A stretch of DNA of 64,000 nt, from the NCBI GenBank assembly GCA_963743425.1, contig CAVUPU010000001.1, forward strand, positions 32,150 through 96,149, given 5' to 3'. A model generated the notes under the pieces. The model did not search any database. It was not told where the DNA came from and saw only the letters and a list, made by a program, of their open reading frames with translations. This stretch comes from an uncultured Acidobacteriota bacterium. Lineage in GTDB: Bacteria; Acidobacteriota; Blastocatellia; RBC074. Below are positions 5,188-62,770 of the stretch, piece after piece; the stretch's first letter is position 1, and each line of letters opens with the position of its first letter. The translations under genes were made by a program, and so were the position numbers.

Positions 5188-5200
5188 TCAGCGTCCATAA

Positions 5201-5317
5201 CCGCCAAGACGCCAAGGACGCCAAGGACGCCAAGAAAAAGCGAGATGAAAGGGTGAAGGGCCAATTCCTTTATCTTTTATCTTTTATCTTTTCTTGGCGA
5301 TCTTGGCGTCTTGGCGG
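5201..5317. repeat. inverted tandem-repeat array: (CGCCAAGR)x4 ... (CTTTTAT)x3 ... (CTTGGCG)x3, between hsp20 and clpB
   Basis: Direct reading. Left arm CGCCAAGA CGCCAAGGA CGCCAAGGA CGCCAAG. Right arm CTTGGCGAT CTTGGCGT CTTGGCGG, the reverse complement of the left. The listed clpB ORF (5253) starts artifactually inside it. Confidence 0.8.
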
Positions 5318-5333
5318 TTTACACGAGGAAGAG

Positions 5334-7928
<2,595 letters not shown>

Positions 7929-7931
<3 letters not shown>

Positions 7932-8075
7932 GGATTGCGGATTGCGGATTGCGGATTTATTGATTCCGAGAATCCTGTTTTCACTGCGTCGCCTCTTGCG
8001 CGAGATAGACCAATGACTATCAATCCGCAATCCGCAATCCGCAATCCGCAATCCGCAATCCGCAATCCGCAATCC
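7929..8075. repeat. inverted heptamer arrays (GGATTGC)x3 ... (CAATCCG)x7, between clpB and grpE
   Basis: Direct reading. The left arm is at 7932-7957 and the right arm at about 8021-8075, separated by roughly 60 nt. The arms differ in copy number. Confidence 0.8.
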
Positions 8076-8119
8076 GCAATCCCACTCCCGTTCATTGCAA
8101 CATCCTTATTGCGATGATA

Positions 8120-8913: not shown

Positions 8914-8933
8914 CAAAGTGGATGAATGATAGA

Positions 8934-8989
8934 TGAATGGGACTTATAGGACTTATAGGACCTCCTATAAGTCCTATAAGTCCCATTCA
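8934..8989. repeat. 56-bp perfect palindrome (TGAATGGGACTTATAGGACTTATAGGAC|CTCCTATAAGTCCTATAAGTCCCATTCA) upstream of groEL
   Basis: Direct reading. Each arm carries a tandem 10-mer GACTTATAGG x2. It is preceded by GATGAATG x2. It is not a CIRCE element. Confidence 0.85.
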
Positions 8990-8992
8990 TGA

Positions 8993-13082: not shown

Positions 13083-13252
13083 TTTTGGAAATAAACGTAT
13101 TGGTTTTGCAAGAGGGTTCCGACTGATGATTGTTGGAACCCTTTCCGTTTTCATGAACCTTATGGCGGTTAGCAAATGCGTTTAAGGGACGGCAAGCGGT
13201 ACAGTACCGAAGGTCGCGCCACTTTCTATCGGTCCCGGGTTTTAGATCACCT

Positions 13253-14428
<1,176 letters not shown>

Positions 14429-14580
14429 GCTGCAGGCCATGCGATGAGGAGACAGTTTAATTTTTATATAAAGTTTACGCCGTGCCAGGTAACTTTCCGA
14501 CCATCATCAAACTGCCCATCATCTTTTGTGTGCGATCAACTCAATAATGAACAACAATGCGAGGAGCATTACTCACATAG

Positions 14581-15015
14581 CTAAGGTTTTTTCTGTTGAA
14601 CTTTCGGCTTTACTTCCTGCTTCGGCTCATCCTTCTTCTCCGTATCCTTCTTCTGATCATTTTCGCGCGAGGCCAACCGGTCAATATCTTTCTTCAATTC
14701 GAGCATCTGCTTTTGCATCGTCAGGAGCTGTTGGGCCAGCGAAAACTGTTGCTGCTGCAATTCGAGCAGCGCCTGCGTCGAGACGTTAGATGAACCGGTG
14801 TTGCTCAGCGCCTGGCTTTGAAACGCCCGTTCGACCGCATCGACACGGATCTGCAACTGATCCAACTTGCGCTCGATATTCATCAGGCGGAAGGTCTGGT
14901 CCTGGGCGTTGTTGCCAGTGGTCGTCGCCGACGCCAGACTTGCCACCAGCAGAACGATTGCCGCAAATATCGCGGCGCTTTTGAGCGGTTTGAATAAGAA
15001 TTGATTTGTTCGCAT
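14581..15015 (-). CDS. secreted coiled-coil protein, hypothetical
   Basis: Signal peptide, Q/L-rich coiled coil and a lysine-rich tail. No identifiable domain. Confidence 0.5.
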   Translation of the reverse strand: MRTNQFLFKPLKSAAIFAAIVLLVASLASATTTGNNAQDQTFRLMNIERKLDQLQIRVDAVERAFQSQALSNTGSSNVSTQALLELQQQQFSLAQQLLTMQKQMLELKKDIDRLASRENDQKKDTEKKDEPKQEVKPKVQQKKP

Positions 15016-15025
15016 TGTTTCCCCT

Positions 15026-15805
15026 TCAGAGCAATTGGAAATTCGAGATCAACTGCCCGCCTTCCAGCGGAATGACGCAGCCCGTCATCAAATCGGGGCC
15101 GGTGATGATGTTGATGATCGCCATCGCGACGTCTTCAGGCTCGCAGACCCCGCGCAAGATCACGCTCTCCTCGGTTCTCTTCTTCGCCTTATCGTAAACA
15201 TCTTCTCCCAATCCTTCCTTCAGCCAGCGCGTGGTGATGAATCCCGGCGCGACGGCGTTGACGCGCACCTTCGGCGCGAAGACGCGGGCGAGCGTGACGG
15301 TCATGTTGTTGAGCGCCGCTTTCGACGCGCAGTAGGGAATCGAGCTGCCGATCCCGGCCAGCCCGGAGACGCTCGAAACGTTGACGATCTCTCCGTCGCC
15401 CGAAGCCGTCAACGCGTCTTTAGCCGCGCGCGCGCATTGAAACGCGCCGATCACATTGACCGACAGTATGCGCATCCAGTCTTCGGTCCGCACGGCCTCC
15501 AAATCCGAATGCCGGATGAACGCGGTTGTCGCGGCGTTGTTGACCAGGACGTCCAATCGCCCGAACTCGCGCACGGCGGTCTCGATCATCTTCCGGCAGG
15601 CGGCGTCATCGGCGACATCGGCCTCGACGGCGATTCCTTTGACGCCGAGCGCGGCGATCTCCGCGGCCGTCTCTTCGGCTTCATTTTTCGACCGGCTGTA
15701 ATTGATCAGAACCGAACATCCGCGCCGCGCAAGCTCCAACGCGGTCGCGCGGCCAACGCCAGTTCCGCCTCCGGTGACCACGGCGGCTTTGCCTTCGATT
15801 TGCAT
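15026..15805 (-). CDS. SDR family oxidoreductase (3-oxoacyl-ACP reductase-like)
   Basis: TGGGTGVGRATALELARRG Rossmann motif, NAG and YxxxK. The start was moved to the internal ATG 15805 (MQIEGKAAVVTGG) with RBS AGAGGAAAG. The listed ORF runs on into the hairpin repeat. Confidence 0.85.
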   Translation of the reverse strand: MQIEGKAAVVTGGGTGVGRATALELARRGCSVLINYSRSKNEAEETAAEIAALGVKGIAVEADVADDAACRKMIETAVREFGRLDVLVNNAATTAFIRHSDLEAVRTEDWMRILSVNVIGAFQCARAAKDALTASGDGEIVNVSSVSGLAGIGSSIPYCASKAALNNMTVTLARVFAPKVRVNAVAPGFITTRWLKEGLGEDVYDKAKKRTEESVILRGVCEPEDVAMAIINIITGPDLMTGCVIPLEGGQLISNFQLL

Positions 15806-15832
15806 CAGGTCTTTCCTCTTTCGTGTTGCGAT

Positions 15833-15902
15833 GTACAGTACCGCGCGTAAGCAAGCGGTTACCTGCGGGTCAGCCGCTTGCTTACACACGCGGTACTGTA
15901 CC
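15833..15902. repeat. GTAC-terminated perfect hairpin element (GTACAGTACCGCGCGTAAGC...GCTTACACACGCGGTACTGTACC) flanked by ~20-bp direct repeats
   Basis: Direct reading. The flanks CTTTCGTGTTGCGATGTACAG and CTTTCGTGTTGGGATGTGACA match at 19 of 21 positions. It belongs to a hairpin family seen at five other loci in the window. Confidence 0.8.
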
Positions 15903-15976
15903 AAGCTTTCGTGTTGGGATGTGACAAACGAACGCAGCCATCTTCGCATCGCGACAGGCTTCTAGCAAGAAAAGAT

Positions 15977-16090
15977 AGGTGTCAGGTGTCAGGTGTCAGG
16001 TGTCAGGTGTCAGGTGTCAGTAAAAGAATGACTACATGGATTCCTACTTGAAAACCTGAAACCTGAAACCTGAAACCTGAAACCTGACAC
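15977..16090. repeat. inverted heptamer arrays (GTGTCAG)x5 ... (CCTGAAA)x4-CCTGACAC abutting the ADOP stop codon
   Basis: Direct reading. On the ADOP coding strand, the stop TAG is followed directly by GTGTCAG (GTTTCAG)x4, about 35 nt of spacer, then (CTGACAC)x5. Confidence 0.85.
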
Positions 16091-18529
16091 CTATTCACAT
16101 CTGAGAGCGACCATCGGATCGACCTTCGCCGCGCGCCGGGCGGGAAGATAGCAGGCGATCAACACCACCAGCCCTAACAGCAGCGTCACGCTGGCGAACG
16201 TTACGATGTCGGTGGCGCTCACACCGTAGAGCACGCTCGACATCAGCCTCGTCAAAACCAGCGCGCCCGCCAGGCCTATCGCCAGCCCAGTGAGCGCCAG
16301 CCACATTCCCTGCTTCACGACAAGCCTCATAACGTCGCTCGACTCAGCGCCGAGCGCCATCCTTACGCCGATCTCGCGAGTCCGCTGGCTGGCGGCATAG
16401 GCCATCACGCCGTAAATGCCCAGCCCCGCGAGCAGAAGCGCCAGCAGCGCGAAACTGCCCGCCACCCACGCGCCCGCCTGCAGCGGGAGGAGCGAAAACC
16501 GCATGTGCTCGCTCATCGTCTTGACATCGTAAAGGGGCAGGTTCGCGTCGAGCCGCTCCACCTCGCGCCGAATCGTGTTGATTATGCTCTGCGGTTCGAC
16601 GCCGGTGTGGACGACGAGAGACATGTTTTCGTCGTACTCTCGCGCTATCGGGTAATAGACGAATGGCTGCGGGTCTTCGCCGAGAGTCCAGTACTTGCCG
16701 TCTTTCACGACGCCGACGACCTCGAAGCGCGGGTTGTCAGGTCCGCCTCGGCTCAGGCGCTTGCCGATTGGATTCTGCCCAGGCCAGAAGCGTCGCGCGA
16801 AAGTTTCGTTGACGATCACGACGCGCGACTCCTCTTTGTCCTCCTGCATCGTGAAATCGCGTCCTTCGAGCAATGGAATACCCATCGTCTCGAAATAACG
16901 CGGCCAGACAAGGCCGTATTGCACAGTGGGCAAATCGGAAGCGCGTGTGAACGGCTGGCCTTCGGCATAAATAATGCCGCCATTGAAATCAAGATTGAGT
17001 GGCAGAGAGTCAAGGTATGAGGCGGCGCGCACGCCTGGCAGCGATTCGACGCTCGTAATGAGTTGCTTGTAGAACTCGCGCCCGCGCGCCTCGTCATAGC
17101 CTTGCAGGCCCAGGTCAACCGACATCGTGATCCTGTTTTCGACCTCGAATCCCGGCCCGATCATTTGTACCTGTTGCAGACTGCGCACGATCAGCCCGGC
17201 GGCAATGAGCAAAAGAAGCGAAAGCGCCACCTGCGCGACGACCAATCCGTTGCGGAAACGCGAACGACGATAACCGCCAAGGCCGGCTTCATCCTTCAAT
17301 GCCGGGATCAGATCAACCTTGCTCGACTGCAGAGCCGGCGCCAGGCCGAAGAGCGCGCCGGTAATGAACGAAACGATCAGCGTGAAGGCCATCACGCGCC
17401 AATCGGGTCGCAGATCGATCAAGAGATTGAAATCTACCGGCGGCTTGAAGGCCGCGACCAGATCGATCATCCAGAGCGCGACCAACCAGCCCACGACTCC
17501 GCCGGCGAGCGATAGCGCCACGCTTTCAGTGAGCAACTGCCGTACGATTCTCAAACGCCCCGCGCCGAGCGACAAACGTATGGCGATTTCCCTGCGCCGC
17601 TGAGCCGCTCTCGCCAGCGACAAATTGGCCAGGTTCACGCAGGCGATCAGCAACACCAGCCCCACAGTCGCCATCAACACTCCCGCGAATCCCAATGTCC
17701 CATAACGGATTAACGGAACCGCCAGACCGGGCGGAGTGACGCTGAACGTCGTTTCACCGAGGCCCTGGTCCTCGCGCGCAAACTGCGCCAGCAACAGGGT
17801 GAGCGATTCACGCGCCTGTGTCGCGGTCACGCCCCGTTTCAGGCGACCAAACGCGAGGATCCCGCCGTTACCGCGATTTTCAAACCAACTCGATTCTCCC
17901 GGCGCGATTTGCTTCACCATCATCATTGGCGTGTAGAAATCCGGCTCGAAGATCAACACCGTTCCGCGAAACTCTTCGGGCGCGACGCCGATGATCGTGA
18001 AGTCGTGGCCATTGAGCTTGATCGTCTTGCCTACCAGGTTCGGATCGCCGCCGAAGCGACGCTGCCAACAGCCGTAGCTCACAACCGCGAGAGGATGCGC
18101 GCCCGGGACACGGTCTTCTTCCTGCGTGAACATTCGGCCTTTGAAGGCGCGCACGCCGAGCGTATCAAAATAATTACCCGAAGCCAGATAGCCAAAGACG
18201 CGCTCATTGACGCCGTTCTGACTCAGATTCATCGGCACAGGGATATATGCCGCCAGCCCGTCAAAGACTTCGTTCTTGTCGCGAAAATCTTTGTAGGTAG
18301 GATAAGAGTAAGCCCCGATGCTGGCGTCCTTCCTCAACGGAGTGACTTCGACGATCCGCTCCGGCTCCGCAATGGGCAGCGGCCGAAGCGCCACCGTGTT
18401 GACCAAACTGAAAATGGCTGTGTTCGCGCCGATTCCCAGGCCGAGCGTGATGATGGCGATTAATGTAAAGCCAGGCTTCCTCAACAACGTTCGCGCGCCG
18501 TAGCGCAGGTCTTGAAATAAAGTGTTCAT
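16091..18529 (-). CDS. ADOP-family ABC transporter permease (MacB-like, two FtsX modules with large periplasmic domains)
   Basis: N-terminal leader [22 protein letters not shown]. About 810 aa. Ends MVALRCE. The start was moved to ATG 18529, which has RBS GGAGGAAGG. Confidence 0.85.
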
Positions 18530-18545
18530 CGTCCTTCCTCCTTGT

Positions 18546-19908
18546 TTATTCGTTTTTCCCCAACGTGTAATCACCTTTGCGTTCACCGGGAATGAGCGTC
18601 CAGCCCGCGTTCAACTCCAGCGTCCAGCCATCGCCCTGAATCGGTTTGGGGGCCGGATCACGCGGAGCGGGGACCCGGATTTGAGAAAAGGCAGGGTTCA
18701 TCAACGCGCCCTCTGAAACAGTCAGTATTCCCCATACATCCACGATCCTGATGTTGGGATAAACCGTGCCGAGATCATCGAGCGGCTGGAGATTGTTCGG
18801 GTCGAACTGCATATTCATTTGGCGGAGCGGGACCACCAGAGCAGGCCCGTCAACCAAACGCGCGCGCCAGGCGGCGATGCGACGCCGGCGATCATTTTCA
18901 CGCTCAGTCTCCGAGGCGCGGAGCGCGTCTGAGGCGTAACGCCGGGCGGCTTCGGCTATTGCCTGTCCGATGTTCGGAGGCGGTTTCAGGGCCATCGCTC
19001 GTTGCAGCAGGAGTCCGAAATCGCTCTCCGGTCTCAATCCCTTTCTCCATTCCTTTCCGGCTTCATCAAGCAACAGCCCATAAGCAGGGCCGGACGCATA
19101 AGCGAACGAGCGCGTAAAAGATCGGCTGCGCTCCGCTTCCTTGAGCTGGCGCGCGGCGAATTGAACACCCGGCCTGCCGCTCAATCTGACGCCGGAGTAC
19201 TCAGCCAGGCCTTCGTGCATTTCCAACGCCCGCTCTTCCTGCTCGGCTTTTGGAAAGAGCGTCCTTCGATAGGCGCGAAAGATCAAGGCGTCGCTGACTG
19301 CCTGCCGGCGCTGCTTCCCTCGCCGCTTCAACCCCAACTCGAGCGCGCGCCATTCAAGTTGCAGCCAGACACGCCCCTCCATCGAATCCAGATGGCTATT
19401 GGACGGCATTGAGCCAGGTAAGCCGAGCTGATCCTGAATGCGATGCCACAATTCATGGATACATGAATCCTGCTCGATCGAATTGATCGGCGGGCAAAGG
19501 CCAGATCATCGTCGCCCACTTCACCCCCGCCCATTCAACGGCAGTATTGGCAATGTTCATCTGATTGGGGAGCTTCCCGACAAAGACCTCGCCGGAGCTT
19601 TTCAATCGCCCTTCACGGTCGCCTTGATTGGCCACCACCGCGCGCGTTTTCGCATCGACGAAAAGCATCGGCCCGCATAGCGAAACGCCCCAGAGCTTGC
19701 CGTTGTCCCGCCGGCATGATGCCTCCGCCTCACTGAAATATTGGCGCGCCATAGAAAGGTCAATTGGCGAATCTTGCGCCGCCACGTCGAAGATCGCCGC
19801 GCCGGCGCCCATGCCGAGCGCCAGCGTGGCGCCAGCAGTCCAAGTGAAAACACATCGCTTCAACAACGTTCGCGCGCCGTACCGCAGGCCTTGCCACAGT
19901 GTTTGCAT
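18546..19908 (-). CDS. chimeric or frameshifted gene: ADOP-type leader ([17 protein letters not shown] plus a TM segment) fused to an unrelated soluble domain; frame break at ~19452
   Basis: ORFs 19453-19908 and 18546-19451 are adjacent on the minus strand in different frames. Only the first ~45 residues resemble ADOP proteins. Confidence 0.45.
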
Positions 19909-19924
19909 AATTCCTCCAAGAGAA

Positions 19925-20015
19925 GATGCCAGATGCTGGATGTCAGATGTCAGTGAGAGAGCATTGCCGCCACTCTTCTACCAACATCGAACATCTGACA
20001 TCTGATATCTGACAT
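19925..20015. repeat. inverted heptamer arrays (GATGYYR)x4 ... (ACATCTG / ATATCTG)x4 abutting the ADOP stop codon
   Basis: Direct reading. The coding-strand stop TAG is followed by ATGTCAG ATATCAG ATGTCAG ATGTTCG... The units resemble the terminal codons of the ADOP gene (...AGATGCGAATAG). Confidence 0.8.
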
Positions 20016-22514
20016 CTATTCGCATCTGAGCGCGATCATCGGATCCACCTTCGTCGCCCGTCGCGCCGGAACGAGCGCGGCGAGCAACGCTACTCCCACC
20101 AGCAACAACGCGACACCGGCAAAAGTCGCCGGATCGGTGGCGCTCACGCCGAAGAGCAGGCTCGCGAGCAGCCGCGTCAACAACAACGAGCCGATGACGC
20201 CGATCGTCGCGCCGGCGGCGATCAGCATTCCGCCCTGCCCCATCACCAGCCTCAGAACGTCTCCGGCCGTCGCGCCTAAAGCCATCCTGACGCCGATCTC
20301 CTTTGTCCGCTCTGCGACCGCGTAAGCCATCACGCCGTAGACGCCCATCACAGCGAGGGCGAGCGCGACGGCGGCGAAGACCGAGAAGATGACCAGGCTG
20401 AAGCGGCGTTGGTCGAGCGAGGAGGAGAAGATTTGTTGAATCGTGCGGAAACTGACAGGCAATTCCGGGTTGAGCGCGCGCGTCGTCCGGCTCATAGCGG
20501 CAGTGAGCGTCGCCGGGTCGGCCTGCGCCCGCACGACGATTGAGATCTGCGAAAGCGGTGGGCGCTGGAGCGCATTGCCATAGACCGTCGGCTGCGCGTC
20601 AGCATCCAGTCCGTCGGCGCGCACATCGCCGACGACGCCGACAATGTGCAACAGGCGCAGATCAGTGTCCATGTTCCCGAACTGAATGCGCTTGCCTATC
20701 GGGTCTTCATTCGGCCAGTACTTCCGGGCGAGCGACTGGCTGATGACCGCTACGTGTTGGCCTTCGAGCCTGTCGCCCTCGTCGAAGACGCGGCCCTTCA
20801 CAAGCGGGATACCCGCCGCGGCGAAGTAGCCCACGCTCGCAACGCGGTAATCGGCGTAGCCTATCTTCGCCGGGTTATTGTCAATCCAGAATGTTCCGTC
20901 GCCGCGATCGCCGTCCATTGGCACGCCGTTGACGCCGCCGATCGCGACGACGCCGGGCAGGTTTCTGAGACCGTCGAGCAACTGCCGATAAAACAGCGTC
21001 TGCCGCCACCGATACTCTACATATTCGTCCGGCTCGGGCAGGCTCTCCGGCATGCCGCCTCCCTCCATCATCCGCTCGAAGGCTCGCACGACTTGCTGTT
21101 CGTGCCGTCCGCGATCCGGGCCGGTGTAATCCGGCAATGACAGATCCATAACGATGGCGCTCTCGGCGCGGAAGCCGGGATCAACCTGAAGCAGCCGGTA
21201 AAAACTCTTGCCGAGCAGCCCCGCCCCCGTCAGCAGCGCGAGCGTCAAAGCCACCTGCGCCACGACGAGCGCGCTCCGCAGCCGGTTGCTCGTAGCTTGC
21301 CCCGCCTGGCCGCGCCCGCCGTCCTTCAGGTTGTCGTGCAGTTCGTTTTGCGAGAGTCGCGCGACCGGCGCGAGGCCGAGCGCGACCGCGATGAACAACG
21401 CGAGGCCGAGCGTAAAACCGAGCGCCCGCATGTCCACTCCGATCTCATCTGCGCGCGGCACACTGCCAGGATTCAATCCGATTAGCAGGTCCACGCCCCA
21501 GAGCGCAAATAGCGCGCCGAGCGCCCCGGCGATCAGAGCCAGCAGCGCATTCTCCGTCACGAACTGCGCCGCAAGTCTCCGCCTCGTCGCCCCGAGCGCA
21601 GCGCGCACGGCAAGCTCTTTCTGCCGCGCCGTCATTTGCGCGAGCAACAGGTTCGCCACGTTCGCGCAAGCCACCATCAACAGAAATCCGACGGCGGCGA
21701 GGACGATCAGCAACAGGTTCTTCGTGTCGCCGACTATGAACTCGTGGATCGGGATCGCGGCAATGTCCACGGCGTCTACGTCCTTGCCGTGTTCCTGCTT
21801 GATCTGCCTGGCGATGGCGCTCAGGTCGGAGCGGGCCTGCTCGATCGTTACGCCGCTCTTGAGCCGCGCAAACACGCTCCAGTTGTGCGCCGAGCGTGAG
21901 GTCTCTGGCGGAAGTAGCTCGCGCGGCGCCCACACATCGAATCCCTGTGGGAAACTGAAGCCCGGCGGCATCACGCCGACCACATCGAAGACCCGATCGC
22001 TGATCAGCAGTCTCACTCCGGCCAGATCAGCGCGCCCGCCGAGTCCCCTCTGCCAGAAGCCGTGGCTGACTACGGCTATCTGCTTGCCGCCGTCTTTAGC
22101 ATCTTCAGGCAGGAACGCTCGACCGGCGAGCGGCGCGACACCCAACACGCGGAAGAAATCATTCGTCGCGAAGAGTACTCGCGCACGCAACGGCTCGCTG
22201 CCGCCCGTTACCGTCTCCATCCCACCGGCGTACTCGGCGACGGCTTCGAGGCTGCGGTTGCGCTTGCGCACATCGCGGAAGTTCGGGTCGGTGAAGGCCA
22301 CCGGGCGGCCCTTCTCGTTCACCTCGCGCATCTGCACGACACGGTCAGCCCCAGGATAAGGCAGCGAACGTAGCAGCGCCGCGTCCACGATGCTGAAGAT
22401 GGCCGTGCAGGCGCCAATGCCCAGCGCCAATGTCAGTACGGCGATCGAGGTAAAGCCGGGCTTCTTCAGCAACATTCGCGCGCCGTAGCGCAGGTCTTGT
22501 AAGAGTGTTTGCAT
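20016..22514 (-). CDS. ADOP-family ABC transporter permease (MacB-like)
   Basis: [22 protein letters not shown] leader. 832 aa. Ends MIALRCE. Confidence 0.85.
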
Positions 22515-22777
22515 GAATTCCTCCCGTTGATCGCCAGTTCACAGTTAGCGAAAGACACGCCTTCTCGCGCGTTGCATTGCCAAAGCTGTGCCAATGCGGC
22601 TGTGAAGCTAATTGGCAAAATCGTTTGGTTTAGCCGGGTTTATTAGGCTGTGCGCTCTTGCCGGGTGTGCGTTTTTGGGAATTGCGAGTCCCAGAATCGA
22701 AAACGCCGCAGCACGCGGAAATAGCAGAACACATAATAGGCAAAGAAACGGCGGAAAAATTGACAGCGCAAAAAAGC

Positions 22778-22813
22778 GACCGTAAACTTACCGCTCGGTA
22801 AGTTTACGGTCAC
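22778..22813. promoter_or_regulatory. 34-bp perfect palindrome GACCGTAAACTTACCG-CT-CGGTAAGTTTACGGTC about 265 bp upstream of the ADOP gene; putative operator. A near-copy lies at 33222-33250.
   Basis: Direct reading. The site at 33222 matches at 23 of 24 positions over CGTAAACTTACCGNTCGGTAAGT. Confidence 0.5.
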
Positions 22814-23139
22814 AACCAGGCAATCATAGCGCGAACTGTCGAGCTAAAGTTTCTACAGATGTCTTTGCGCCAGAGGCGCAGCGGATATTAGCCGGTGGTG
22901 GAGCGAAGCGTAACCACCGGAACCGGTGGAGTGATCTATTCCAGCCCCGGAGGGGCGACAGACCGAGCCTCAGTCTGTCGCCCCTCCGGGGCTGGGTTGA
23001 TGATCTCGATCGCATCCGGTGGTTTCTCCACCGGCTAATATCCGGCGTCCCTCCGGGACGAAGAGTAATCCCGGATTTGTATAGAAACTTTAGCTGCCGA
23101 GTTTGCGCCGCTTCCGCAACTGAGCGTGTAAATTTCGAT

Positions 23140-23427
23140 ATGCAACAACCTATCTGGAACTTCGAGCAGAAACCGACGGATGAGCAGTTGGATGAAACCG
23201 GCGTCAATCTGCGCGCCTATTTCGACCGAATGGATGATGAGAAGATGCGGCAGTACGATCCGCCCTGGAGCGACGAACAGGTCGTCGAGTGGGACGGCAA
23301 CTTCCGCGACGACGGAAATCTGATGATGTTTTGCTGTGAACGCGATGTCGAGGTGGATGAATACCGTCGCGTGCTGGAAGAATGCATTGAGTATCGCAAC
23401 AGGGTCAGGGAAAAACTGCTCGGTTGA
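23140..23427 (+). CDS. hypothetical acidic protein
   Basis: ORF with coding-like composition. A start at the internal Met (MQQPIWNF) is the more plausible one. No motifs. Confidence 0.35.
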
Positions 23428-23432
23428 GATCT

Positions 23433-23531
23433 CATTTTCCATTTTCCATTTTAGATTTGTCATTTGTCATTGACTGAGAGGAACTGAGCGCAATGACAAA
23501 TGACAAATCTAAAATGGAAAATGGAAAATGG
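23433..23531. repeat. hairpin element built from heptamer repeats (CCATTTT)x3, (GTCATTT)x2, a 20-nt loop, then (AATGACA)x2, (AAATGGA)x3
   Basis: Direct reading. It has perfect 33-bp arms and lies between convergent genes. It shares motifs with the element at 54886-54996. Confidence 0.8.
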
Positions 23532-23558
23532 TTTGTGGTCGCAGATCCTTTTCGCTCA

Positions 23559-24590
23559 TCAATACTCACACAGCGGGCTGTGGACCTCGTACCGTTTGAC
23601 GTCCTTGAAGCCTTCGCCCTGATGGCAATCCGCGCAGATCGGCGCCCGTAAGACGCGGCGGTGTTTGAAGCTCGAATTGGCGTGGACCTGATGGCAGCTC
23701 AGACAGGTGATTGATTCATTGCCGTATAGCGCGACGTCACGCGCGTTGCGCCAGACGTGGCGGTCTCCCGCGTTCAGCTTCTGATCATCGGCCTTGGCCC
23801 AATCCACTTCCAAATCCTGAAACAGATTGTCGCCCGCCACGAAATTGTTTTGGTAGGGCAGACCCGTTGACCGCGATTTCGATTCGCGCAGGTGGCATTG
23901 CGCGCAGATCGAGGTAATCGCCCTGGCGTCATTGCGCCGCTTTTTCGACAACAGGACCAGCGATGTGTCATTGGTGTGATTGAGGTCAACGGGGCCGTGG
24001 CAGGTGTAGCAATCCAGCCCGAACGCGCTGAAGGCTCTGGTCTCGGGATCAACCGCTGTCGTGTGACAGCCCGCGCACCGGTTGGCGAACTTTTCTTTGT
24101 CCCACGCGAGCTTCTCGTGATCAATCAACGTAGCAGGTTGGCCGTTCGCGCCGAGCGCGGCCTGCGCATTGAGCATAGTGAATTTGCCGTAGCCCTCTTT
24201 CTTCAGAAAGCGCACGCGGCGCCGGCTGCCGATGAAGTATTCGATTTGCTTCGCGGCGTCTGCAAGAGCCGGCAAGGATTCAAGCATTTTGGTCAATTCC
24301 GGCGCATCTTCGCGCTGCCGCACCGTAACGCCGTGCGCGTTCTTCTGCCACGAGGGGCCGATGTCGTTACGATGGCAGAAGAGGCATTCGTCGCCGTGCA
24401 CGAATTCCGGGATCGGTTTGCCGACGTGATTGCCGCCCCATGCTTTCGGATCAACCGGCTTCTGCTCCGGCTTGTTCTGATCCTGTCCGCTCGCGGCGCC
24501 GTTGAAGCATAGAGCGAAAAGCGCGAACGCGCAAACAACCAGCGACTTTGCGATGGCGGTTGGCCGCGTGATTTTGCTTCTCGAACGCAT
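23559..24590 (-). CDS. hexaheme c-type cytochrome (six CxxCH motifs), secreted
   Basis: CLFCH, CAGCH, CYTCH, CAQCH, CLSCH and CADCH. Signal peptide follows the internal Met (MRSRSKITRPTAIAKSLVVCAFALFA). Start set at 24590. Confidence 0.8.
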   Translation of the reverse strand: MRSRSKITRPTAIAKSLVVCAFALFALCFNGAASGQDQNKPEQKPVDPKAWGGNHVGKPIPEFVHGDECLFCHRNDIGPSWQKNAHGVTVRQREDAPELTKMLESLPALADAAKQIEYFIGSRRRVRFLKKEGYGKFTMLNAQAALGANGQPATLIDHEKLAWDKEKFANRCAGCHTTAVDPETRAFSAFGLDCYTCHGPVDLNHTNDTSLVLLSKKRRNDARAITSICAQCHLRESKSRSTGLPYQNNFVAGDNLFQDLEVDWAKADDQKLNAGDRHVWRNARDVALYGNESITCLSCHQVHANSSFKHRRVLRAPICADCHQGEGFKDVKRYEVHSPLCEY

Positions 24591-24607
24591 GAGGCTATTG
24601 AAGATCG

Positions 24608-24700
24608 CCCCTGGGTACGCATCGCTTCCAGCGTGCGAGGCTCCGATCAAAGACCGAGTAATGGAAGCCTCGCACGCTGGAAGCGATGCGTACCCAGGGG
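24608..24700. repeat. GTAC-type perfect hairpin (34-bp arms CCCCTGGGTACGCATCGCTTCCAGCGTGCGAGGC, 25-nt loop)
   Basis: Direct reading. It sits between two co-directional genes. Confidence 0.8.
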
Positions 24701-24703
24701 ATT

Positions 24704-25252
24704 TTATGACTTCGGCTTTTTGATCGCGCCTTCGACCGGGCTTTTCGCCCCCTCGGCGTATTTCGCGCCAATCAGCGCGTAGGTCTTCTCCGCGCGCAGT
24801 TTCAGTTGTTCAAGACCTTTCTGAAAATCCTCTTCCTTGAAATTCTCGTCACAGAACGCGCAGCAGCTTTCAAAAGTCAGACCGAGCCGCTTCCACTGCA
24901 GCATCCCGCCGGGCGCGACCTGATCGGTCACCGGGCACCAGATCACGCTCATCGCGCGCATGAAGTTGTTGATGAATCGTTGGCGCTCAGCCGCTTTGGC
25001 GTATTTGTCCGGGTCTTTCAAAAACTTCTCCTGCGCGTCCGCCTTACTCCCGCGATAGGTCACGCCTTTGTAATCCCATATGGGCAGCTTCGGATCGGAT
25101 GGTTCCAGATAGACCGGGCAGAGATCTACAGATTTCTGCGCTTCGGAGATTTTGACCTTCTCGAGCGTCACCGCGTCGGCGGGTAGTTGGGCGAAAGCGG
25201 CGCCCGCCGTCGCAAGGAGTATGAAAACTATCAATGCCAATCGTCGCAACAT
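24704..25252 (-). CDS. secreted hypothetical protein (possible accessory subunit of the redox cluster)
   Basis: Signal peptide MLRRLALIVFILLATAGAAFA. Conserved Cys residues (CPV, WCPV, CCAFC). No assignable domain. Confidence 0.5.
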   Translation of the reverse strand: MLRRLALIVFILLATAGAAFAQLPADAVTLEKVKISEAQKSVDLCPVYLEPSDPKLPIWDYKGVTYRGSKADAQEKFLKDPDKYAKAAERQRFINNFMRAMSVIWCPVTDQVAPGGMLQWKRLGLTFESCCAFCDENFKEEDFQKGLEQLKLRAEKTYALIGAKYAEGAKSPVEGAIKKPKS

Positions 25253-25299
25253 ATTTCATTTCCTCTATACCTGAGCGCATACGACTCGTAATTCCTTGT

Positions 25300-27305
<2,006 letters not shown>

Positions 27306-27309
<4 letters not shown>

Positions 27310-28733
27310 TATCCTCTCTTCAGGTCTTCATTGAGCGAGTTCAAGAACGCGACAAGCGGAGCGATCTCCGCCGCGCCGATCCTGATCTTCGCCAACTCCT
27401 CATCGCCTTCGCGGACGCGACCCGCGCGGGCCATATCGCTTAAACGAATTATCTCTCCCAAAGTTTCTTCCAGCGTTTGAATAGAGCCGTTGTGAAAATA
27501 GGGATGCGTGTAAGCCAGATTGCGCAGCGTTGGCGTTTTGAACGTGGCGATCATCCTTCGCAGGAAAATGTCATCACTCTCTCCGGCGCGGCGCAGCGGC
27601 GATGTTTTCAGATCAACGAAATTCCAGAAGCCCAGGTCAGTCTCGCCCGGCTTCTCCTTCGACGGATTTTCGCGGAACTGCGCCGACGGGCGGCGCGCCG
27701 ACGCGGCGTCAGGAATCGCCAGCGCCGCGAATTTGCCTTCGCCACCATCACTATGGACGCGATCGTAATCAACCTGGCTGACACCCTTGTTGTGAAATGA
27801 AAAATCGGTGAAGAGCGGCGGCGTATGGCAGGTCGCGCAATTGCCAGCTTTCGTGTCGAAGAATATCTTCAGCCCTTTGAGCGCCGCCGCGTTGAAATCC
27901 CTCGTGAGCTTGATCGCGCCTTTCGACTCGATCGAATCGATCCCGGCCAGCAGCCGTCGCGCGAAGGCGTTGCCGTCTTCGCCCGGCGCGGGTTTGCTCT
28001 CCAACCGGTTGGCTTCGATGAATTTGTCGTAGGGAGAATCTTTGCGCGTGTTGAGCGTGCGGATGAAGCCGGCCAGGGCTTTGGCTATCAGTTCGACTAC
28101 TTCGTCGCGGCCGAGTTTTTCAACGTCAACGTTGAACGCCGCTTTGAACTGATTTCGATACGACTCCGCGCCGTCGTCATTCGATATGACGGCGCGCGCG
28201 CGTTCGAAGGCCTGGGCCTCTTCGCCCGGCAGCCATCCCATCGGACGCCCCGAGATGGTGCCTCTGACCAGTTCTTCCAGCGAGCCGAATTCGCCGTCGT
28301 GATGCAGCCGGGGCATTTCAGCCACGTCGAAGATCGTCGGCGAATTTCGCAACCCGAGCCGGCGGCGGTCCTGCGCGCGCGACGAGACCCAGCTTCGGTT
28401 GAAGAAATCGGCGTAGGCGCGCAAGCCCTGCGGGTCCTGGTTGAACAGATGGCAATTGCTGCAACTCGCGGGCAGGTCTCCCTCGGGAGTCGAGAACCGG
28501 TCGTCGTTGAACAAACGCTCGCCTAGATGGATTACGGCTGATCTTTCCTGTTTCTGTTGAGATTGGCCGAGCGCGGGTCGAGTGAGATCGCCTGTTAAGC
28601 GTGAAAGCGCCAGACAAAAAAATGTCAGACAGAAAAACAGGAAGCGGGGAATGGGGAATGGGGAATGGGGAATGGGGGGCTTTTCCTCTGTTCCCACTCC
28701 CCACTCCCCACTCCCCGTCTTTCTGTCTGACAT
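27306..28733 (-). CDS. di-heme cytochrome c peroxidase (CCP/MauG family)
   Basis: Two CxxCH motifs (CSNCH, CATCH) with CCP-like spacing. It overlaps the PQQ-DH start by 4 bp. Its N-terminal region is encoded through the repeat array at 28609-28749, so the start is uncertain (28733 or 28754). Confidence 0.8.
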
Positions 28734-28749
28734 TTTTCTGTCTCCTCTT
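28609..28749. repeat. composite palindrome: outer 18-bp arms AAAAATGTCAGACAGAAA/TTTCTGTCTGACATTTTT enclosing (GGGGAAT)x4 ... (CCCCACT)x3
   Basis: Direct reading. It overlaps the 5' end of the CCP ORF. Confidence 0.8.
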
Positions 28750-28779
28750 CCCATGTTCGCTTGCCGGCTTACAGCCCAT

Positions 28780-29754
28780 TCACTCCTTGATCGGATGGCC
28801 TTCGATCAATTCGATGCGAATTTTATCCGGCCCTTCGATGAATGCGAATTTGATCTTGCCGCCGGCGACCGAACGAATCTCATCTGTCACTTTGACGCCG
28901 TCTTTGCGCAGCTTCTCCAAAGCTTCAGGCAGATTCGCGACGCTGAATCCGACGTGGTCAACGACGCGGCCCTTGGTCGATTCAAGCTCGGTCTTGCCTT
29001 TCCAATGCTCAGGATAAGCCTTCTTCGGGTACTCGACCGGATAGATGATGATGTTGACGTTGTCCATCGCGAGCGACATCGAAGGGCCGATCTGGTAGCT
29101 GCGATAAAAACGGGGTTCGCGCGACGGCGCGCGAGTCCCGCGACGTTTGGCGCCGAAATACTTCTCATACCATTCGCCGGCCGCCACCGGGTCGGCGCTG
29201 AACATGTGCAGGTGGCCGAAGTGATGATGCCCCGCCGTGTTGATCTCGATCAGAGCTTTGTCCGGGCTTTCGATGTAGGCGTAAAAGAACCGCCCTGTGG
29301 CGCCGGTATTGCCGCCGATGTCGCTGATGTCCGTCAACGGCGTGAAGAACTTCGTGCCCGCGGCCACATGCTTTTCATAAGTCGCCTTCATATCCTCCGC
29401 GCCCCAGCCGAAATGCCATATCGCCGAAGTCAATTCCCAGGGCGGGGCCTTTTCGACTTTGGTGAACAGCAACCAGGATTTCTGCGCCCAGACCGCGTCG
29501 AGCATTCCAGCGAACTTCGCCTTCTCGCAATCGAATTTCGAGGTGTAGAAATCAATCGCGCCTTTCGGGTCGAGGGTATTCAGGTGCAGGTGATGGAAAT
29601 GGGCTTCGGGAAACTGCGCCTCGGCGGGTTTGTTTTCCGCAGTCGGCGGCTTCGTCTCCTGCGCGTTGAAGCCGGATACGCACAACGCCAACGCCGCTAA
29701 AAAGAGAAGAAAGCTGACTGGTACAGGCCATAGCCAATTTTTTTTCCTAAGCAT
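28780..29754 (-). CDS. VOC-family protein (glyoxalase/bleomycin-resistance/extradiol dioxygenase fold, two modules), secreted
   Basis: Signal peptide. Paired beta-alpha-beta-beta-beta modules with His/Glu metal ligands (HFHHLHL..., HVGFSV). Confidence 0.7.
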
Positions 29755-29771
29755 GGAGATTTCTCCGTAAT

Positions 29772-29854
29772 GTAGGGGCAGACCTGCGTGTCTGCCCCGG
29801 TTTCAGGAAGGCGCGCCTCATCACACCGGGACAGACACACAGGTCTGCCCCTAC
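29772..29854. repeat. hairpin element GTAGGGGCAGACCTGCGTGTCTGCCCCGG ... CCGGGACAGACACACAGGTCTGCCCCTAC; each arm is itself a hairpin
   Basis: Direct reading. There are two mismatches between the arms. Confidence 0.75.
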
Positions 29855-29944
29855 GTTGTCGCAATTAACGCGGCCAAAAATGGGCGCCCCAACGCGCCGG
29901 ATTGCGCATCAGACCGCCCATTCATCGCTTGCCGCGGGAGCGGT

Positions 29945-31492
<1,548 letters not shown>

Positions 31493-31516
31493 ATGATGAC
31501 TCCTTGGGGAAAGGTT

Positions 31517-31577
31517 CGTAGTACCGCCTTCAGGCGGAAGCGGAATCCTTCCGCTTCCGCCTGAAGGCGGTACTACG
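31517..31577. repeat. GTAC-type perfect hairpin CGTAGTACCGCCTTCAGGCGGAAGCGGAATCC|TTCCGCTTCCGCCTGAAGGCGGTACTACG
   Basis: Direct reading. Confidence 0.8.
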
Positions 31578-31587
31578 AACGCAATAT

Positions 31588-32988
31588 CTACTTATTCGAA
31601 GCGGTCTGTGTCTGTCCCTGCGCGCGCAGGTTCTGACTGTCAATCGTGTAATCCATCCATCCGATCATCATCTCTTCCCAGGTCTGGTCGCCCCAGCGGA
31701 CGGTGATGGTCGGGTCGGGATTGAATTTGTTGGCGGCTGAATTGTCGTGGTGCGCCAGGCATTCGATGCGACTGCCTTTGGGAACGGCGATCGGCTCTTT
31801 GACGAAGTAATTCAATTGCCAGTTGAAATCGTACTTCGGAACGCGCAGCAGAATCTTCTCCTTGCCGTCGGGGTAAACCAGCTTGTACTCGAAATCCTTG
31901 CCCCGGACGTGCATATGCGGCATGAAAGAGTGGATGTGCGCGTCTTCGGTGAAGGTGAGTGACGAGCGCGATTCGAAGTTCGCATCCCCCGGCGGGATCT
32001 CCAGTTTGCGCGGATCGGTCGAGACGCCCCTGGTGATGACGCGCTTTTCGATCGGCTCTTTGGCGAACCAGAATCCCACGCTGGTGCGATCTTTGGCCGC
32101 GACGCCGTTGGTCGTGTAATGCATCTGGAAGATCAGAACCGAGCCTTTCTTGACGAGCTTGGCCTGGCCGGGCTTGAGCGTGAGCGGACTCATTCCCGGC
32201 GCCCAGCCGACGATCATGCGGTCGGGATTCATACCGCGAGGCCGGTTGTTCTGCGCCTGCTGCGGATCGCGCGCGGCTTCGGGATTGACCCGCTGCTGAT
32301 CCCTCCTGATCTCGCCAGCGGGTGGAAGCGGGCCCTGGTCAGGCTCGCGCACGCTGACTATGACATGATGCACGACGCTCGGCTCGCCGCGTTTGATCTG
32401 GGCGAATTGAATGTATTTGTCTTCGGTGAAGTTGGTCGGGACGGCCCAATAACGGTACGGCACCGTGCCGTCGGCGGGGATCGATGCCTCTTCGGTCAAT
32501 GAGAAGACTGCGTCGGGCTGGCCGAATTTCCATCCAACGTCATTGAATTTCGGCGCCGGAGGCAAATCCTTCGCGTCGCCCTCCTTCGATCCGCCGTCAA
32601 CCCAGGCGCGGATCGTTGCGATCTGCTGCTCGGTCAATCGCGGATCGTTGAGGAATTCACCATGATTCGGATCGGCGTACCAGGGTGGCATCTCCCGGCT
32701 TATGACTCTTTCGCGGATCGATTTGGCCCACGGGCGGACATCTTTGTACGCTAGAAGCGACATCGGCGCCATCTCGCCGGGGCGGTGGCAGGTGGCGCAT
32801 TTGTCGTGAAGAATCGGCGCGACATCTTTATTGAATGTCACAACCGCGTTGCTCGTTCCGCTCGCGTCGCCCTGTCGTTGTGATACGAAGAAGGCCACGA
32901 GCGCTAAAGCGAGGACCATGCAAATAGCGGCGTTGCGTCTCATAAACTCATCCCTCCGATACATCCACGAAGTCACGCGAAGAAACAC
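31588..32988 (-). CDS. monoheme cytochrome c domain fused to a large domain with a His/Met arrangement like PHM/DBH copper monooxygenases
   Basis: N-terminal [12 protein letters not shown]...MPPWYADP (PSCyt-like). Downstream are [19 protein letters not shown] and MMIGWM, which recall the CuH/CuM ligand sets of copper type II monooxygenases. This is an inference. Confidence 0.55.
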
Positions 32989-33221
32989 GAAGAAAAAAGG
33001 GAAAATCTTCGCGCCCCTTCGTGTGACTTAGTGGATGGTTTTCATCTTGTCGAAAGCCACCGTTCGCGAATGCGAATCGGGCGACGCGGGTTCTGTTTTG
33101 AAATACGATTGGACCGGAGCTTTTGTTACGACTCTTCTGAAATCAAGACGATAAAAACCGACGGCTGGTCACTTCCATTTCATCGCCGGTCAGACCGGAA
33201 TTACCCATTCCGATCAACCGG

Positions 33222-46130: not shown

Positions 46131-46132
46131 GC

Positions 46133-46211
46133 CAGTACCGCGAGCGGTAGCGAGCGAGGCTGCCCGAGTAATCATTAGCGGGAGCCTCGCTCGCTACCGC
46201 TCGCGGTACTG
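46133..46211. terminator. GTAC-type perfect hairpin (CCAGTACCGCGAGCGGTAGCGAGCGAGGCTCCCGC...) between convergent genes; probable bidirectional terminator
   Basis: Direct reading. No U-tract. Confidence 0.6.
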
Positions 46212-46212
46212 A

Positions 46213-53850: not shown

Positions 53851-53941
53851 TGGTACAGTACGGGGAGCGTAAGCGACCTGAGCCCCGGTCAATAGGCCCA
53901 TTGATCGGGGCTCAGGTCGCTTATGCTCCCCGTACTGTACC
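53851..53941. repeat. GTAC-type perfect hairpin (GGTACAGTACGGGGAGCGTAAGCGACCTGAGCCCCG...) in a divergent promoter region
   Basis: Direct reading. It shares GTACAGTAC...GCGTAAGC with the element at 15833. Confidence 0.8.
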
Positions 53942-58030: not shown

Positions 58031-58205
58031 ATCATCGTTTCGGCCACTGGCGAGATTGGAACAGCAGGAACCGCGGATTTTCACGGATGCCACGGATTGT
58101 CACGGATAATCCGCATTGATCCGTCGCATCCGTGAAAATCCGCGGTTGCTCATCGTCCTGATGTGGCCGGCTCTGATTTGGATAAGTGGCCGAAACGATG
58201 ATCAA
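58031..58205. repeat. nested inverted-repeat element: outer 19-bp IR TGATCATCGTTTCGGCCAC / GTGGCCGAAACGATGATCA enclosing a hairpin with 20-bp perfect arms and internal CACGGAT repeats
   Basis: Direct reading. It is MITE-like. It lies immediately upstream of the BNR gene and overlaps that gene's listed 5' extension. Confidence 0.75.
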
Positions 58206-61295: not shown

Positions 61296-61374
61296 AGTTG
61301 TCGGGTAAGGCGATGATGTTGCCATCATCTCCTCCCCTAAGAACGCGCCGTGCGAGTTTCCCCGCAGCACGCTC
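61296..61374 (-). ncRNA. group II intron 3' remnant: domain V (GAGCGUGCUGCGGG-GAAA-CUCGCACGGCGCGUUC) and a probable domain VI hairpin with a bulged A
   Basis: Hand-folded. 14/16-nt strands with a GAAA tetraloop, a 2-nt bulge, an AGC triad and a GUUC end match the domain V consensus. A GAUGAUG-GCAA-CAUCAUC hairpin with a bulged A follows. Confidence 0.5.
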
Positions 61375-61381
61375 AGGCCTT

Positions 61382-61631: not shown

Positions 61632-62770
61632 TTATTTTCCAGGTACTCCCTACGTGATCTTTGAAGTGATAGCAGCATTGAAGGTTAGCAGTTCTCTGAG
61701 CGTCCAGGGATGATCAGTTAGCCCGGCAGCTTGTGCAGGCGTCTTGCCTTTCAATGAACCGTGCTCCCGGCACAGATTGTAGTAGCTCTTGAAGAGCTGC
61801 GCCTGCGTGTCAATCGCTGTCCGGCGCTTGGCGAAACTGCGTGTCTTACGATGCAGCGGCACGACGTGTTGGCGAACCGTCCCGTTGAGCCGTTCCAAGA
61901 GCGAGGTCGAGATTTGCTTGAGTGGAATCAACTCCGCTACACCGAAGACCACCCGACGGGTCACTGATAGCAGACGCCGCCCCGCGCGCTGTTTGATAAC
62001 TTGCCCGTAACGCACTCGCGGGTCAGGCACGACCTGTGACTCTTTCGGACGGCCTGGCCTCTTGCCCTTGATGAAGTGAATCAAGACAGCAAAGACCACT
62101 GTCAGCGCAAACAGGTATGGCTCCCATCCATCGCTTGACCACAAGGGCCAGCAATCAGGAGCCAGCCTGCGGGCTGCGCCTTCGACCAATTTCGTCGCCG
62201 ATTCTTGCGTGCGTGGGCCGACGACGACTTCGAGCATCAGGCGCGATTCGCGCGCCATGGCGATGTGCGTCCAATGTTGGCCGACCTCTTCCAGGTTGCC
62301 CTCTTGCTCATCAGGATGCTTCTCGCCGGCGAAGCCGTGAAGTTCATCCAGTTCGACATTGTCTGTCGAGACATTGGTGATGACCTTCTTATCGGCAGAG
62401 CGGGCCTGATCACGGCCTCGCTCCACCCACCGCTGTACGGTTGTGGGATGGACGCCTTCAATGCGAGCCACCGCCTCGGGGCACAAGCCTTCAAGCTCCT
62501 GATGGATGGCGCGTTGGACTTTCTCTTCCGGAGTTTTCAGGTCGTAGAAAGCCGTGCCGTAACGATCGCAGAAGGTTCCCTTGTGCTGCTTGCATCGGAT
62601 GACCCACACCACCTGACCGCTCTTGAGTGTATAGCGGCTATGATAAGCTAGCCGCTCGGCAGGCGCTCCACAATGTGGGCACTGCCCGGTAAGGGGTTTT
62701 GTTTGGATCATGTCAACCCGAACTTACCCTTTACCGCTCAATCATTTCAAAGATCAGCTACGGAGTACCG
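61632..62770 (-). mobile_element. IS1-family-like insertion sequence (~1.14 kb) with 23-bp terminal inverted repeats GGTACTCCSTASSTGATCTTTGA
   Basis: The terminal repeats at 61632-61654 and 62748-62770 match at 20 of 23 positions. It has a single transposase ORF. Confidence 0.7.
61650..62711 (-). CDS. DDE transposase, IS1-family-like (zinc-finger/HTH N-terminus)
   Basis: CPHCGA zinc ribbon. HTH (HPTTVQRWV). DELHGF...WTHIAMARESRLML...GPRT...SSDGWEPY catalytic region. C-terminal ...KGKTPAQAAGLTDHPWTLREL. Confidence 0.65.
   Translation of the reverse strand: MIQTKPLTGQCPHCGAPAERLAYHSRYTLKSGQVVWVIRCKQHKGTFCDRYGTAFYDLKTPEEKVQRAIHQELEGLCPEAVARIEGVHPTTVQRWVERGRDQARSADKKVITNVSTDNVELDELHGFAGEKHPDEQEGNLEEVGQHWTHIAMARESRLMLEVVVGPRTQESATKLVEGAARRLAPDCWPLWSSDGWEPYLFALTVVFAVLIHFIKGKRPGRPKESQVVPDPRVRYGQVIKQRAGRRLLSVTRRVVFGVAELIPLKQISTSLLERLNGTVRQHVVPLHRKTRSFAKRRTAIDTQAQLFKSYYNLCREHGSLKGKTPAQAAGLTDHPWTLRELLTFNAAITSKIT

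Follow-up and report, generated by a model that had tools for sequence, protein, structure and literature searches.

Intergenic hairpins in a Blastocatellia genome include probable REPIN-like doublets of a class-3-type Y1 transposase family

Three intergenic hairpins in the 64-kb stretch of Blastocatellia DNA analysed here (the whole of it, 64,000 nt, is called the window below), those at positions 15833, 46133 and 53852, are most probably REPIN-like, non-autonomous REP doublets of a class-3-type Y1 family that occurs in Blastocatellia and in some Planctomycetota; we would put the probability of this reading at roughly 85%. Mobile repeats of this kind are already known from bacteria, and the three hairpins are a new example of them, not an element of a new type. 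The first-pass annotation had described these hairpins, together with three others, as mobile REP-like elements rather than ordinary terminators. This description could be upheld for the three copies named above, which belong to a large conserved family whose units flank a Y1 gene, and one of which, the 15833 copy, has a site that is empty in relatives.

All six hairpins reported earlier are present in the window, at positions that proved exact or at most 3 nt off, and their folding energies range from -51 to -90 kcal/mol, with z-scores between -6.9 and -16.2 (RNA folding compared with dinucleotide shuffles). When the window was scanned for long hairpins, defined by a score of at least 12, we obtained 15 of them, while ten dinucleotide-preserving shuffles gave 0. 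A search of Rfam at the gathering threshold returned no match to any of the six. Features are listed in Table 1; the flanking genes were assigned from the list of open reading frames and from Pfam.

Table 1. Hairpins, neighbouring genes and direct repeats in the window (a dot means that no strand is assigned)
Feature	Position	Strand	Basis or remark
Probable REP doublet (REPIN-like hairpin), subtype C (taCAGTACCGCGCGCGTAAGCAAGCGG)	15833..15902	.	-50.9 kcal/mol, z -6.9
Probable REP doublet, subtype A (CAGTACCGCGAGCGGTAGCGAGCG)	46133..46211	.	R1 covariance model matches, folding
Probable REP doublet, divergent subtype (GGTACAGTACGGGGAGCGTAAGCGACC)	53852..53941	.	R1 covariance model matches, folding
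Separate palindrome family, inverted doublet of GTTCGTAGTACCGCC-ttca-GGCGG	31514..31580	.	No R1 match
Separate palindrome type (CCCCTGGGTACGCATCGCTTCCAGCGTGCGAGGCT)	24608..24700	.	No R1 match
Separate palindrome type (GTAGGGGCAGAC-ctgcgt-GTCTGCCCC, doubled)	29772..29854	.	No R1 match
SDR gene, with the 15833 hairpin in its 5' region	15026..15806	-	ORF list, Pfam
Upstream duplicated FtsX/MacB-type permease	16091..18586	-	Pfam families of the orthologue
Direct repeat copy, SDR side (CTTTCGTGTTGCGATGT)	15818..15834	.	Overlaps the first 2 nt of the hairpin
Direct repeat copy, permease side (CTTTCGTGTTGGGATGT)	15906..15922	.	16/17 match to the other copy

It had been proposed that the six hairpins form a single family with shared termini and a shared internal motif. 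Both kinds of similarity are indeed found in the 15833, 46133 and 53852 copies. CAGTACC and its complement occur at 15836/15892 and at 46133/46205, GTACAGTAC occurs at 15833/15893 and at 53853/53932, and the internal motif GCGTAAGC, which corresponds to the conserved loop of the repeat unit described below, occurs unchanged in 15833 and 53852 and as the variant GCGGTAGC in 46133. They are absent from the remaining three: the 31514 copy has the head GTAGTACC, and the 24608 and 29772 copies have no more in common than the tetranucleotide GTAC or GTAG. When a covariance model built for the unit (R1) was run on the window without filters and up to E = 10, it recognised only 46133 (46129-46162(+), 35.9 bits, E 2.2e-6; 46182-46215(-), 40 bits, E 2.6e-7), 15833 (15832-15863(+), 22.0 bits, E 0.0032; 15869-15902(-), 27.6 bits, E 1.7e-4) and 53852 (53852-53885(+), 21.3 bits, E 0.0046; 53908-53941(-), 12.7 bits, E 0.42), and it reported nothing at 24608, 29772 or 31514. 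The single-family reading was rejected on the basis of these three missing matches.

The hairpins at 24608, 29772 and 31514 are thus other palindrome families of a similar build, in which a GTAC or GTAG head is followed by a small stem and the whole is doubled. The unit of the 31514 hairpin (GTTCGTAGTnCCGCCTnnAGGCGG) is GTAG-headed with a small stem of its own, and doublets and a singlet of it occur in L024, L037, L084 and L091 (numbers with L denote fetched loci of other genomes). The 24608 arm has relatives in L068 and L084, and the 29772 type has none among the fetched loci. Both 31514 and 29772 resemble the GTAG-tagged palindromic repeats (Di Nocera et al. 2013, PMC3733652), in which GTAG is likewise followed by a small GC-rich palindrome, but unlike those repeats, neither was found to be associated with a transposase. 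A transposase between the pair of 31514-type doublets in L084 was considered and dropped, as the ORF located there encodes an ordinary protein of 428 aa without transposase-like features.

The repeat unit of the R1 family is about 30 nt long. It begins with a foot, (G)TCAG[T/A]A, which is followed by a CCNNN/NNNGG stem (CCNNN pairing with N'N'N'GG) enclosing the loop GCG[G/T][T/A]AGCG, and each long hairpin consists of two such units in inverted orientation with a variable spacer between them. An alignment of 60 diverse units (A1) gave the consensus nnGTCAGTACCGCnnGCGGTAGCGnGCGGGT, with CAG.AC and GCG..AGC invariant. In these 60 units, 80.9% of the cells of the 5-bp stem (columns 10-16 with 27-31) are paired, in comparison to 68.7% in shuffles; none of 500 shuffles reached the observed value, and slid partners gave 34-44%. 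From one lineage to another, the variable positions of the stem change in a compensatory manner (e.g. GCC/GGC, ACC/GGT, ATC/GAT), and at pair 12-29 there are 31 units with GC, 17 with AU and 5 with GU, which amounts to double changes. As for the foot, CAGT is the commoner form overall, with CAGA present in a large part of the units, for instance in CAGAACCGCCTGCGGTAGCGGGCGG, the commonest string.

The arms of 108 copies fall into a few conserved subtypes (AGCGGTAGCGAGCG, ACCGGTAGGGAGCG, CGCGTAAGCAAGCG, AACGGTAGTGAGCG), and the loops vary in both sequence and length. The 46133 copy belongs to the first of these subtypes and is 89% identical over 80 nt to a copy in L093, while the 15833 copy belongs to the third and has a 2-nt deletion in its left arm, which produces a bulge. 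The arms of the 53852 copy have relatives in L047, L100 and L001. We also found at least 11 occurrences of mixed doublets, which combine the arms of two unit subtypes (ACCGGTAGGr with CGCGGTAGCA) and have mismatches in the long hairpin; they occur in L013, L023, L041, L052, L062, L068, L069, L092 and others. An isolated GGTACAGTACCG in an intergenic region of the window (13198-13243) could be the decayed remains of one unit; its match to the unit model is weak (11.6 bits, E 0.79).

Clustering by terminal sequence across genomes had been suggested as a check, and it did reveal further members of the family. Scanning one genome per GTDB species with the pattern CAGTACCGCG-N30-60-CGCGGTACTG, we found at least 107 matching stretches, whereas by our own estimate about 17 would be expected by chance in the whole collection. 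Most of the matches listed come from Blastocatellia and Pyrinomonadaceae MAGs, several of which have 5-8 contigs each with exact termini. Among the first 80 matches listed, the label is Acidobacteriota, Blastocatellia or Pyrinomonadaceae for 54, another 4 come from Planctomycetota and have family-like arms, and 5 are probable chance matches. The Planctomycetota doublets (CAGTACCGCGACCGTsAGGGAGCGGC...) were found in L003/L040 (Planctomycetaceae) and in L032 and L039 (Phycisphaerales), which agrees with the distribution of class 3 Y1 proteins as published (PMC6006769). A further 17 of the 80 belong to MAGs that bear the title 'uncultured Heliomicrobium sp.', although Heliomicrobium is a genus of Firmicutes, and contain typical family copies (L002, L013, L016, L017, L021, L023, L025, L041, L044, L052, L060, L061, L067-L070, L076); this label may be wrong. 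The genome studied here has three doublets in 64 kb. Outside the matches by which loci were ascertained, unit density in the fetched genome loci is low, at least 9 per Mb, a figure to be read as a lower bound because both the strict regular expression and the short nhmmer profile under-detect units.

The family is linked to a transposase through a locus of a Pyrinomonadaceae MAG (L079), where a 167-aa ORF (5263-5766) is located between two family copies (5192-5255 and 5771-5834) that are 515 nt apart. Its product matches Pfam Y1_Tnp with 34.7 bits against a cut-off of 23, and the same match is present in all 25 aligned homologues (161-167 aa), in which N98-H-V-H101 (N98, H99, V100 and H101), Y160 and Q165 (Y....Q) are invariant. 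The L079 protein stays under the NCBIfam cut-offs, with 25 bits versus 80 for REP_Tyr_transpos and 30 versus 55 for IS200. A metagenome scan with this protein confirmed at least 528 relatives, and we retained 80 loci. In 58 of 76 loci a forward unit is located no more than 200 nt upstream of the transposase gene, and in 53 of 75 a reverse unit no more than 200 nt downstream; altogether, 65 forward and 8 reverse units were counted upstream, versus 62 reverse and 12 forward units downstream. R1 detected 281 units in 230 kb of transposase loci, often several in tandem beside one gene; it needs to be added that R1 was built in part from these loci, and that the orientation of units relative to the gene is independent of this. 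Searches of solved structures with the L079-type transposase alone and with the 25-sequence profile gave no meaningful match at the sequence level. The 64-kb window itself contains no Y1 transposase gene detectable by tblastn, and the link is seen only in related genomes.

One might suppose that the hairpins are the fused ends of autonomous IS200/IS605-type insertion sequences, i.e. palindrome-associated transposable elements, and not a REP/REPIN population dependent on a resident single-copy gene. The protein does score slightly better on the IS200 model than on the REP transposase model, its relatives are numerous in soil metagenomes, and class 3 is likened both to IS and to REPtrons, with three related genes in one genome, by Quentin et al. 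(PMC6006769). On the other hand, units of identical sequence are inverted around the gene in the numbers given above, which is the arrangement of a REPtron, whereas in an IS608-type element, as is well established, the hairpins of the two ends differ from each other and are on one strand (background in PMC6006769). The tandem units that often flank one gene, as well as the presence of one gene copy in 769 kb of family-bearing genome loci, also speak against autonomous insertion sequences, and we consider this alternative improbable.

The reading of the three hairpins as REP doublets places them beside a described class of enzymes. According to Quentin, Siguier, Chandler and Fichant (2018, PMC6006769), class 3 TnpA-Y1 proteins carry the motifs NHVH and Y----Q, are about 155-178 aa long and are found mainly in Planctomycetes, Acidobacteria and Proteobacteria, and the structures flanking their genes reach high copy numbers, with some 600 in the case of Solibacter usitatus. 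Compared with this description in motifs, length and hosts, the proteins and units reported here appear to fit class 3. In both cases the gene is accompanied by several small hairpins with a conserved 5' foot (termed 'atypical secondary structures' in PMC6006769), and these are multi-copy. The foot was given there, from manual inspection, as CnGA; in our units CAGA is present, but CAGT is commoner. The passages of that account considered here do not mention the doublets, the subtypes, the mixed-subtype doublets or the distribution in Blastocatellia.

The resemblance to the REP/REPIN-RAYT systems of Enterobacteria and Pseudomonas (Nunvar 2010; Bertels and Rainey 2011, PMC3116915; for E. coli TnpA-REP, Ton-Hoang 2012) extends to the unit of about 30 nt, composed of a conserved 5' tetranucleotide and an imperfect palindrome, to the inverted doublets that fold into hairpins outside genes, and to the Y1 gene placed between inverted units; the mixed-subtype doublets recall the Y/Z pairs of E. 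coli BIMEs. There are also clear differences. The foot is CAG[T/A] here and GT[AG]G in those systems, with GTAG appearing only in the unrelated 29772 and 31514 hairpins; the spacer is short (about 10-25 nt), so that a nearly continuous hairpin is formed; and the protein, with 25 bits against the REP_Tyr_transpos cut-off of 80, is of a different Y1 class. In a full-text literature search we found no paper that joins Blastocatellia and 'repetitive extragenic palindromic'.

As to the mechanism, the repeat unit would serve as cognate DNA for a small HUH/Y1 transposase of about 165 aa, which acts on single-stranded DNA and is of the class 3 TnpA-Y1 type; the gene of this protein, bracketed by forward units upstream and reverse units downstream, has the geometry of a REPtron. 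By homology to IS608 TnpA and E. coli TnpA-REP, the enzyme is predicted to bind the unit hairpin in single-stranded DNA, to cleave beside the foot through a 5'-phosphotyrosine intermediate and to rejoin the strand. Such cleavage and rejoining could lead to excision of doublets and to their insertion in extragenic DNA.

The gene context of the hairpins bears on a second alternative, namely that they are ordinary terminators or mRNA-stabilising stem-loops which evolved in place and resemble each other by convergence. They were said to occur in every gene orientation, and they do: between tandem genes (15833, 24608, 29772, 31514), between convergent genes (46133) and between divergent ones (53852). 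All of them fold very stably, T-rich stretches follow 53852 and 24608, and the 46133 hairpin fills exactly the space between two convergent stop codons (46130 and 46213), from which it is 2 nt and 1 nt away. REPs of E. coli are known to affect termination and mRNA stability, as stated in the background of PMC6006769. The other two doublets are not located at 3' ends of genes, as 53852 lies between the divergent starts of an ABC-ATPase gene and an ECF-sigma gene, and 15833 lies between the duplicated FtsX/MacB-type permease gene and the SDR gene, 27 nt 5' of the start codon of the latter. Moreover, a terminator scan of positions 14000-33000 lists 0 of the four hairpins present there, and terminator-like sites are not enriched in this interval (18 found versus 21.9 expected). 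The arms are conserved across unrelated loci and many genomes and keep a fixed geometry around the transposase gene, which convergence does not explain. We regard terminators evolved in place as highly unlikely, although a secondary effect of the REP doublet on transcripts at 46133, similar to that of E. coli REPs, would be plausible.

The 15833 hairpin deserves separate treatment, as it is bracketed by a direct repeat. The repeat had been described as matching at 19 of 21 positions. We found that it is real, with a 16/17 ungapped match (CTTTCGTGTTGsGATGT, 15818-15834 and 15906-15922), while the longer figure needs a 1-nt gap in the last four bases. We compared the regions upstream of orthologous SDR genes in relatives, reading them in the sense direction of SDR. 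MAGs labelled Blastocatellia, Pyrinomonadaceae, Chloracidobacterium or Acidobacteria contain proteins with 90-96% identity to the SDR protein of the window. An inspection of related strains for empty sites had been proposed, and such sites exist: the hairpin is absent and the repeated sequence is present in a single copy in L204 (...TGTCACATCCCAAC|ACTGGAGAGGAAA), in L200-203 (...TTAGATCCCGTT|ACGAAAGAGGAAA) and in L118. The site is filled, with an 8-nt flanking repeat, in L108-110 and L199 (...ATCCCAAC|AGTACC...CTGTAC|ATCCCAAy|(AC)GAAAGAGG), and a remnant with an internal deletion is found in L111-117 (CAGTACCGC/TCGCTTACGCGCGCGGCGCTGTAT). The 15833 site is therefore polymorphic among relatives for the presence or absence of the element, by insertion or excision.

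At the filled orthologous sites the flanking repeat comprises the 8-nt part only, GTTGGGAT (ATCCCAAC on the SDR sense strand). The 15 nt next to the permease-side repeat in the window (ACGAAAGCTTGGTAC, minus strand) have no counterpart in the filled L108, L111 and L199; with them, the repeat reaches 17 nt and the GTAC end of the palindrome is complete. These 15 nt were either lost in the relatives, an AC microhomology being present at both ends, or gained in the window. Since empty sites hold a single copy and filled ones an 8-nt repeat, what has been duplicated is the insertion site, and the repeat does not stem from an unrelated tandem duplication. The SDR gene tree is star-like, with filled and empty sites interspersed, and for this reason insertion and excision are not distinguishable; insertion, precise loss between the repeats and recombination are all possible events at this site. 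A different long hairpin (CCCTGGGAGCGCAGTGCGTCCTCGCCTGC...GCAGGCGAGGACGCACTGCGCTCCCAGG) lies some 120 nt before the SDR start in L205-L207 (gene at 1501), positioned between the conserved upstream block and the ribosome-binding site, which means that the site was hit independently by another palindrome type.

The earlier suggestion of a MITE-like element with target duplication is correct for the duplication at 15833 but could not be generalised. MITEs would be deletion derivatives of DDE-type insertion sequences with terminal inverted repeats, the target being duplicated by staggered cuts, and in their favour one may quote the 17-nt repeat at 15833, the 8-nt repeat at filled orthologous sites compared with one copy at empty ones, and flanking repeats of 8-9 nt at L054 and L063. 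A duplication of fixed length is, however, not a property of the family: the longest flanking direct repeats of 106 family copies have the same distribution as randomly re-paired flanks, by which systematic target duplication is rejected, and the window copies 46133 and 53852 have no flanking direct repeat. In addition, the associated gene encodes a Y1 HUH enzyme and not a DDE transposase, and the unit is composed of a foot and a small covarying hairpin instead of a plain terminal inverted repeat. A MITE origin has, in our opinion, only a very slight chance of being correct.

In the framework of REP doublets, the flanking repeat at 15833 would be a target duplication that arose at or after that particular insertion, and not a regular by-product of the mechanism. 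Transposition by HUH/Y1 enzymes is not expected to duplicate the target, and the flanking repeat of 8-17 nt at 15833 thus speaks against the reading as a REP doublet. It seems improbable that insertion of a doublet by the class-3 HUH enzyme can itself duplicate 8-17 bp of target, with 15833, and perhaps L054 and L063, as examples; if true, a single-strand Y1 system would here resolve insertion by a route that is staggered or involves repair synthesis, in contrast to the 'peel and paste' of IS200/IS605, which leaves no duplication. When all fetched loci were compared with one another, no further doublet with a filled/empty polymorphism came to light.

Several other observations were made around the SDR gene. 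Its reading frame is open through the 15833 hairpin, and the mechanical ORF (15026-15949, minus strand) thus reaches 307 aa. Public gene calls for SDR orthologues (P0002, P0004, P0006) are 273-308 aa long versus the expected 259 aa, and these over-long calls are an annotation artefact of the hairpin insertion. A block at 15925-15965 of the window (minus strand), TTTCTTGyCAGrAGCC....CGATGCGAAGATG, is found upstream of SDR in every relative, whatever lies farther up, and it may be a promoter (TTGCCA, 17 nt, GAAGAT) or a leader element; a consensus promoter scan gave no call at this block. If it is a promoter, the 15833 hairpin would be transcribed as a part of the 5' UTR. Behind the SDR stop codon, L111-L117 have an insertion of 43 nt that contains a small hairpin (GGGACAGAC-taaa-GTCTGTCCC, then a T-run) and is lacking in the window (15024/15025). 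The spacer between the following two genes is 155-166 nt longer in the window (14418-14585) than in L111 and L200.

Intergenic palindromes of a second class are also present in the window. Their arms consist of short units, in most cases 7 nt long, arranged in tandem, for example AGGTGTC repeated 6.3 times facing AAACCTG repeated 5.9 times. They are located at 7905-8088, 15975-16094, 23433-23530, 28612-28743, 5199-5319, 8933-8990 and 58066-58150, and none of them matches the REP unit model. The array at 15975-16094, built of heptamers, follows the permease gene on the minus strand, and similar arrays with other units and copy numbers occupy the orthologous site after the permease stop codon in L111, L118, L199 and L200. 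Elsewhere, Rfam reported a Group II catalytic intron (RF00029) at 61300-61376 on the minus strand (49.5 bits, E 1.1e-6), which is adjoined by an ORF on the same strand (61650-62711).

For those who annotate these genomes, our results contain a warning, as gene callers read through the hairpins and the palindromes are a mixture of families. What has been gained is a defined repeat unit, with its foot, covarying stem and conserved loop, a model with which it can be searched, and a polymorphic site observed in the empty, filled and degraded states. Work on REPIN-RAYT systems has been confined almost entirely to Proteobacteria, and the family described here is a well-populated example from Blastocatellia, which are abundant and little-studied soil bacteria. 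The system is tied to class 3, the least understood class of Y1 enzymes, which Quentin et al. (PMC6006769) present as a possible intermediate between insertion sequences and REPtrons.
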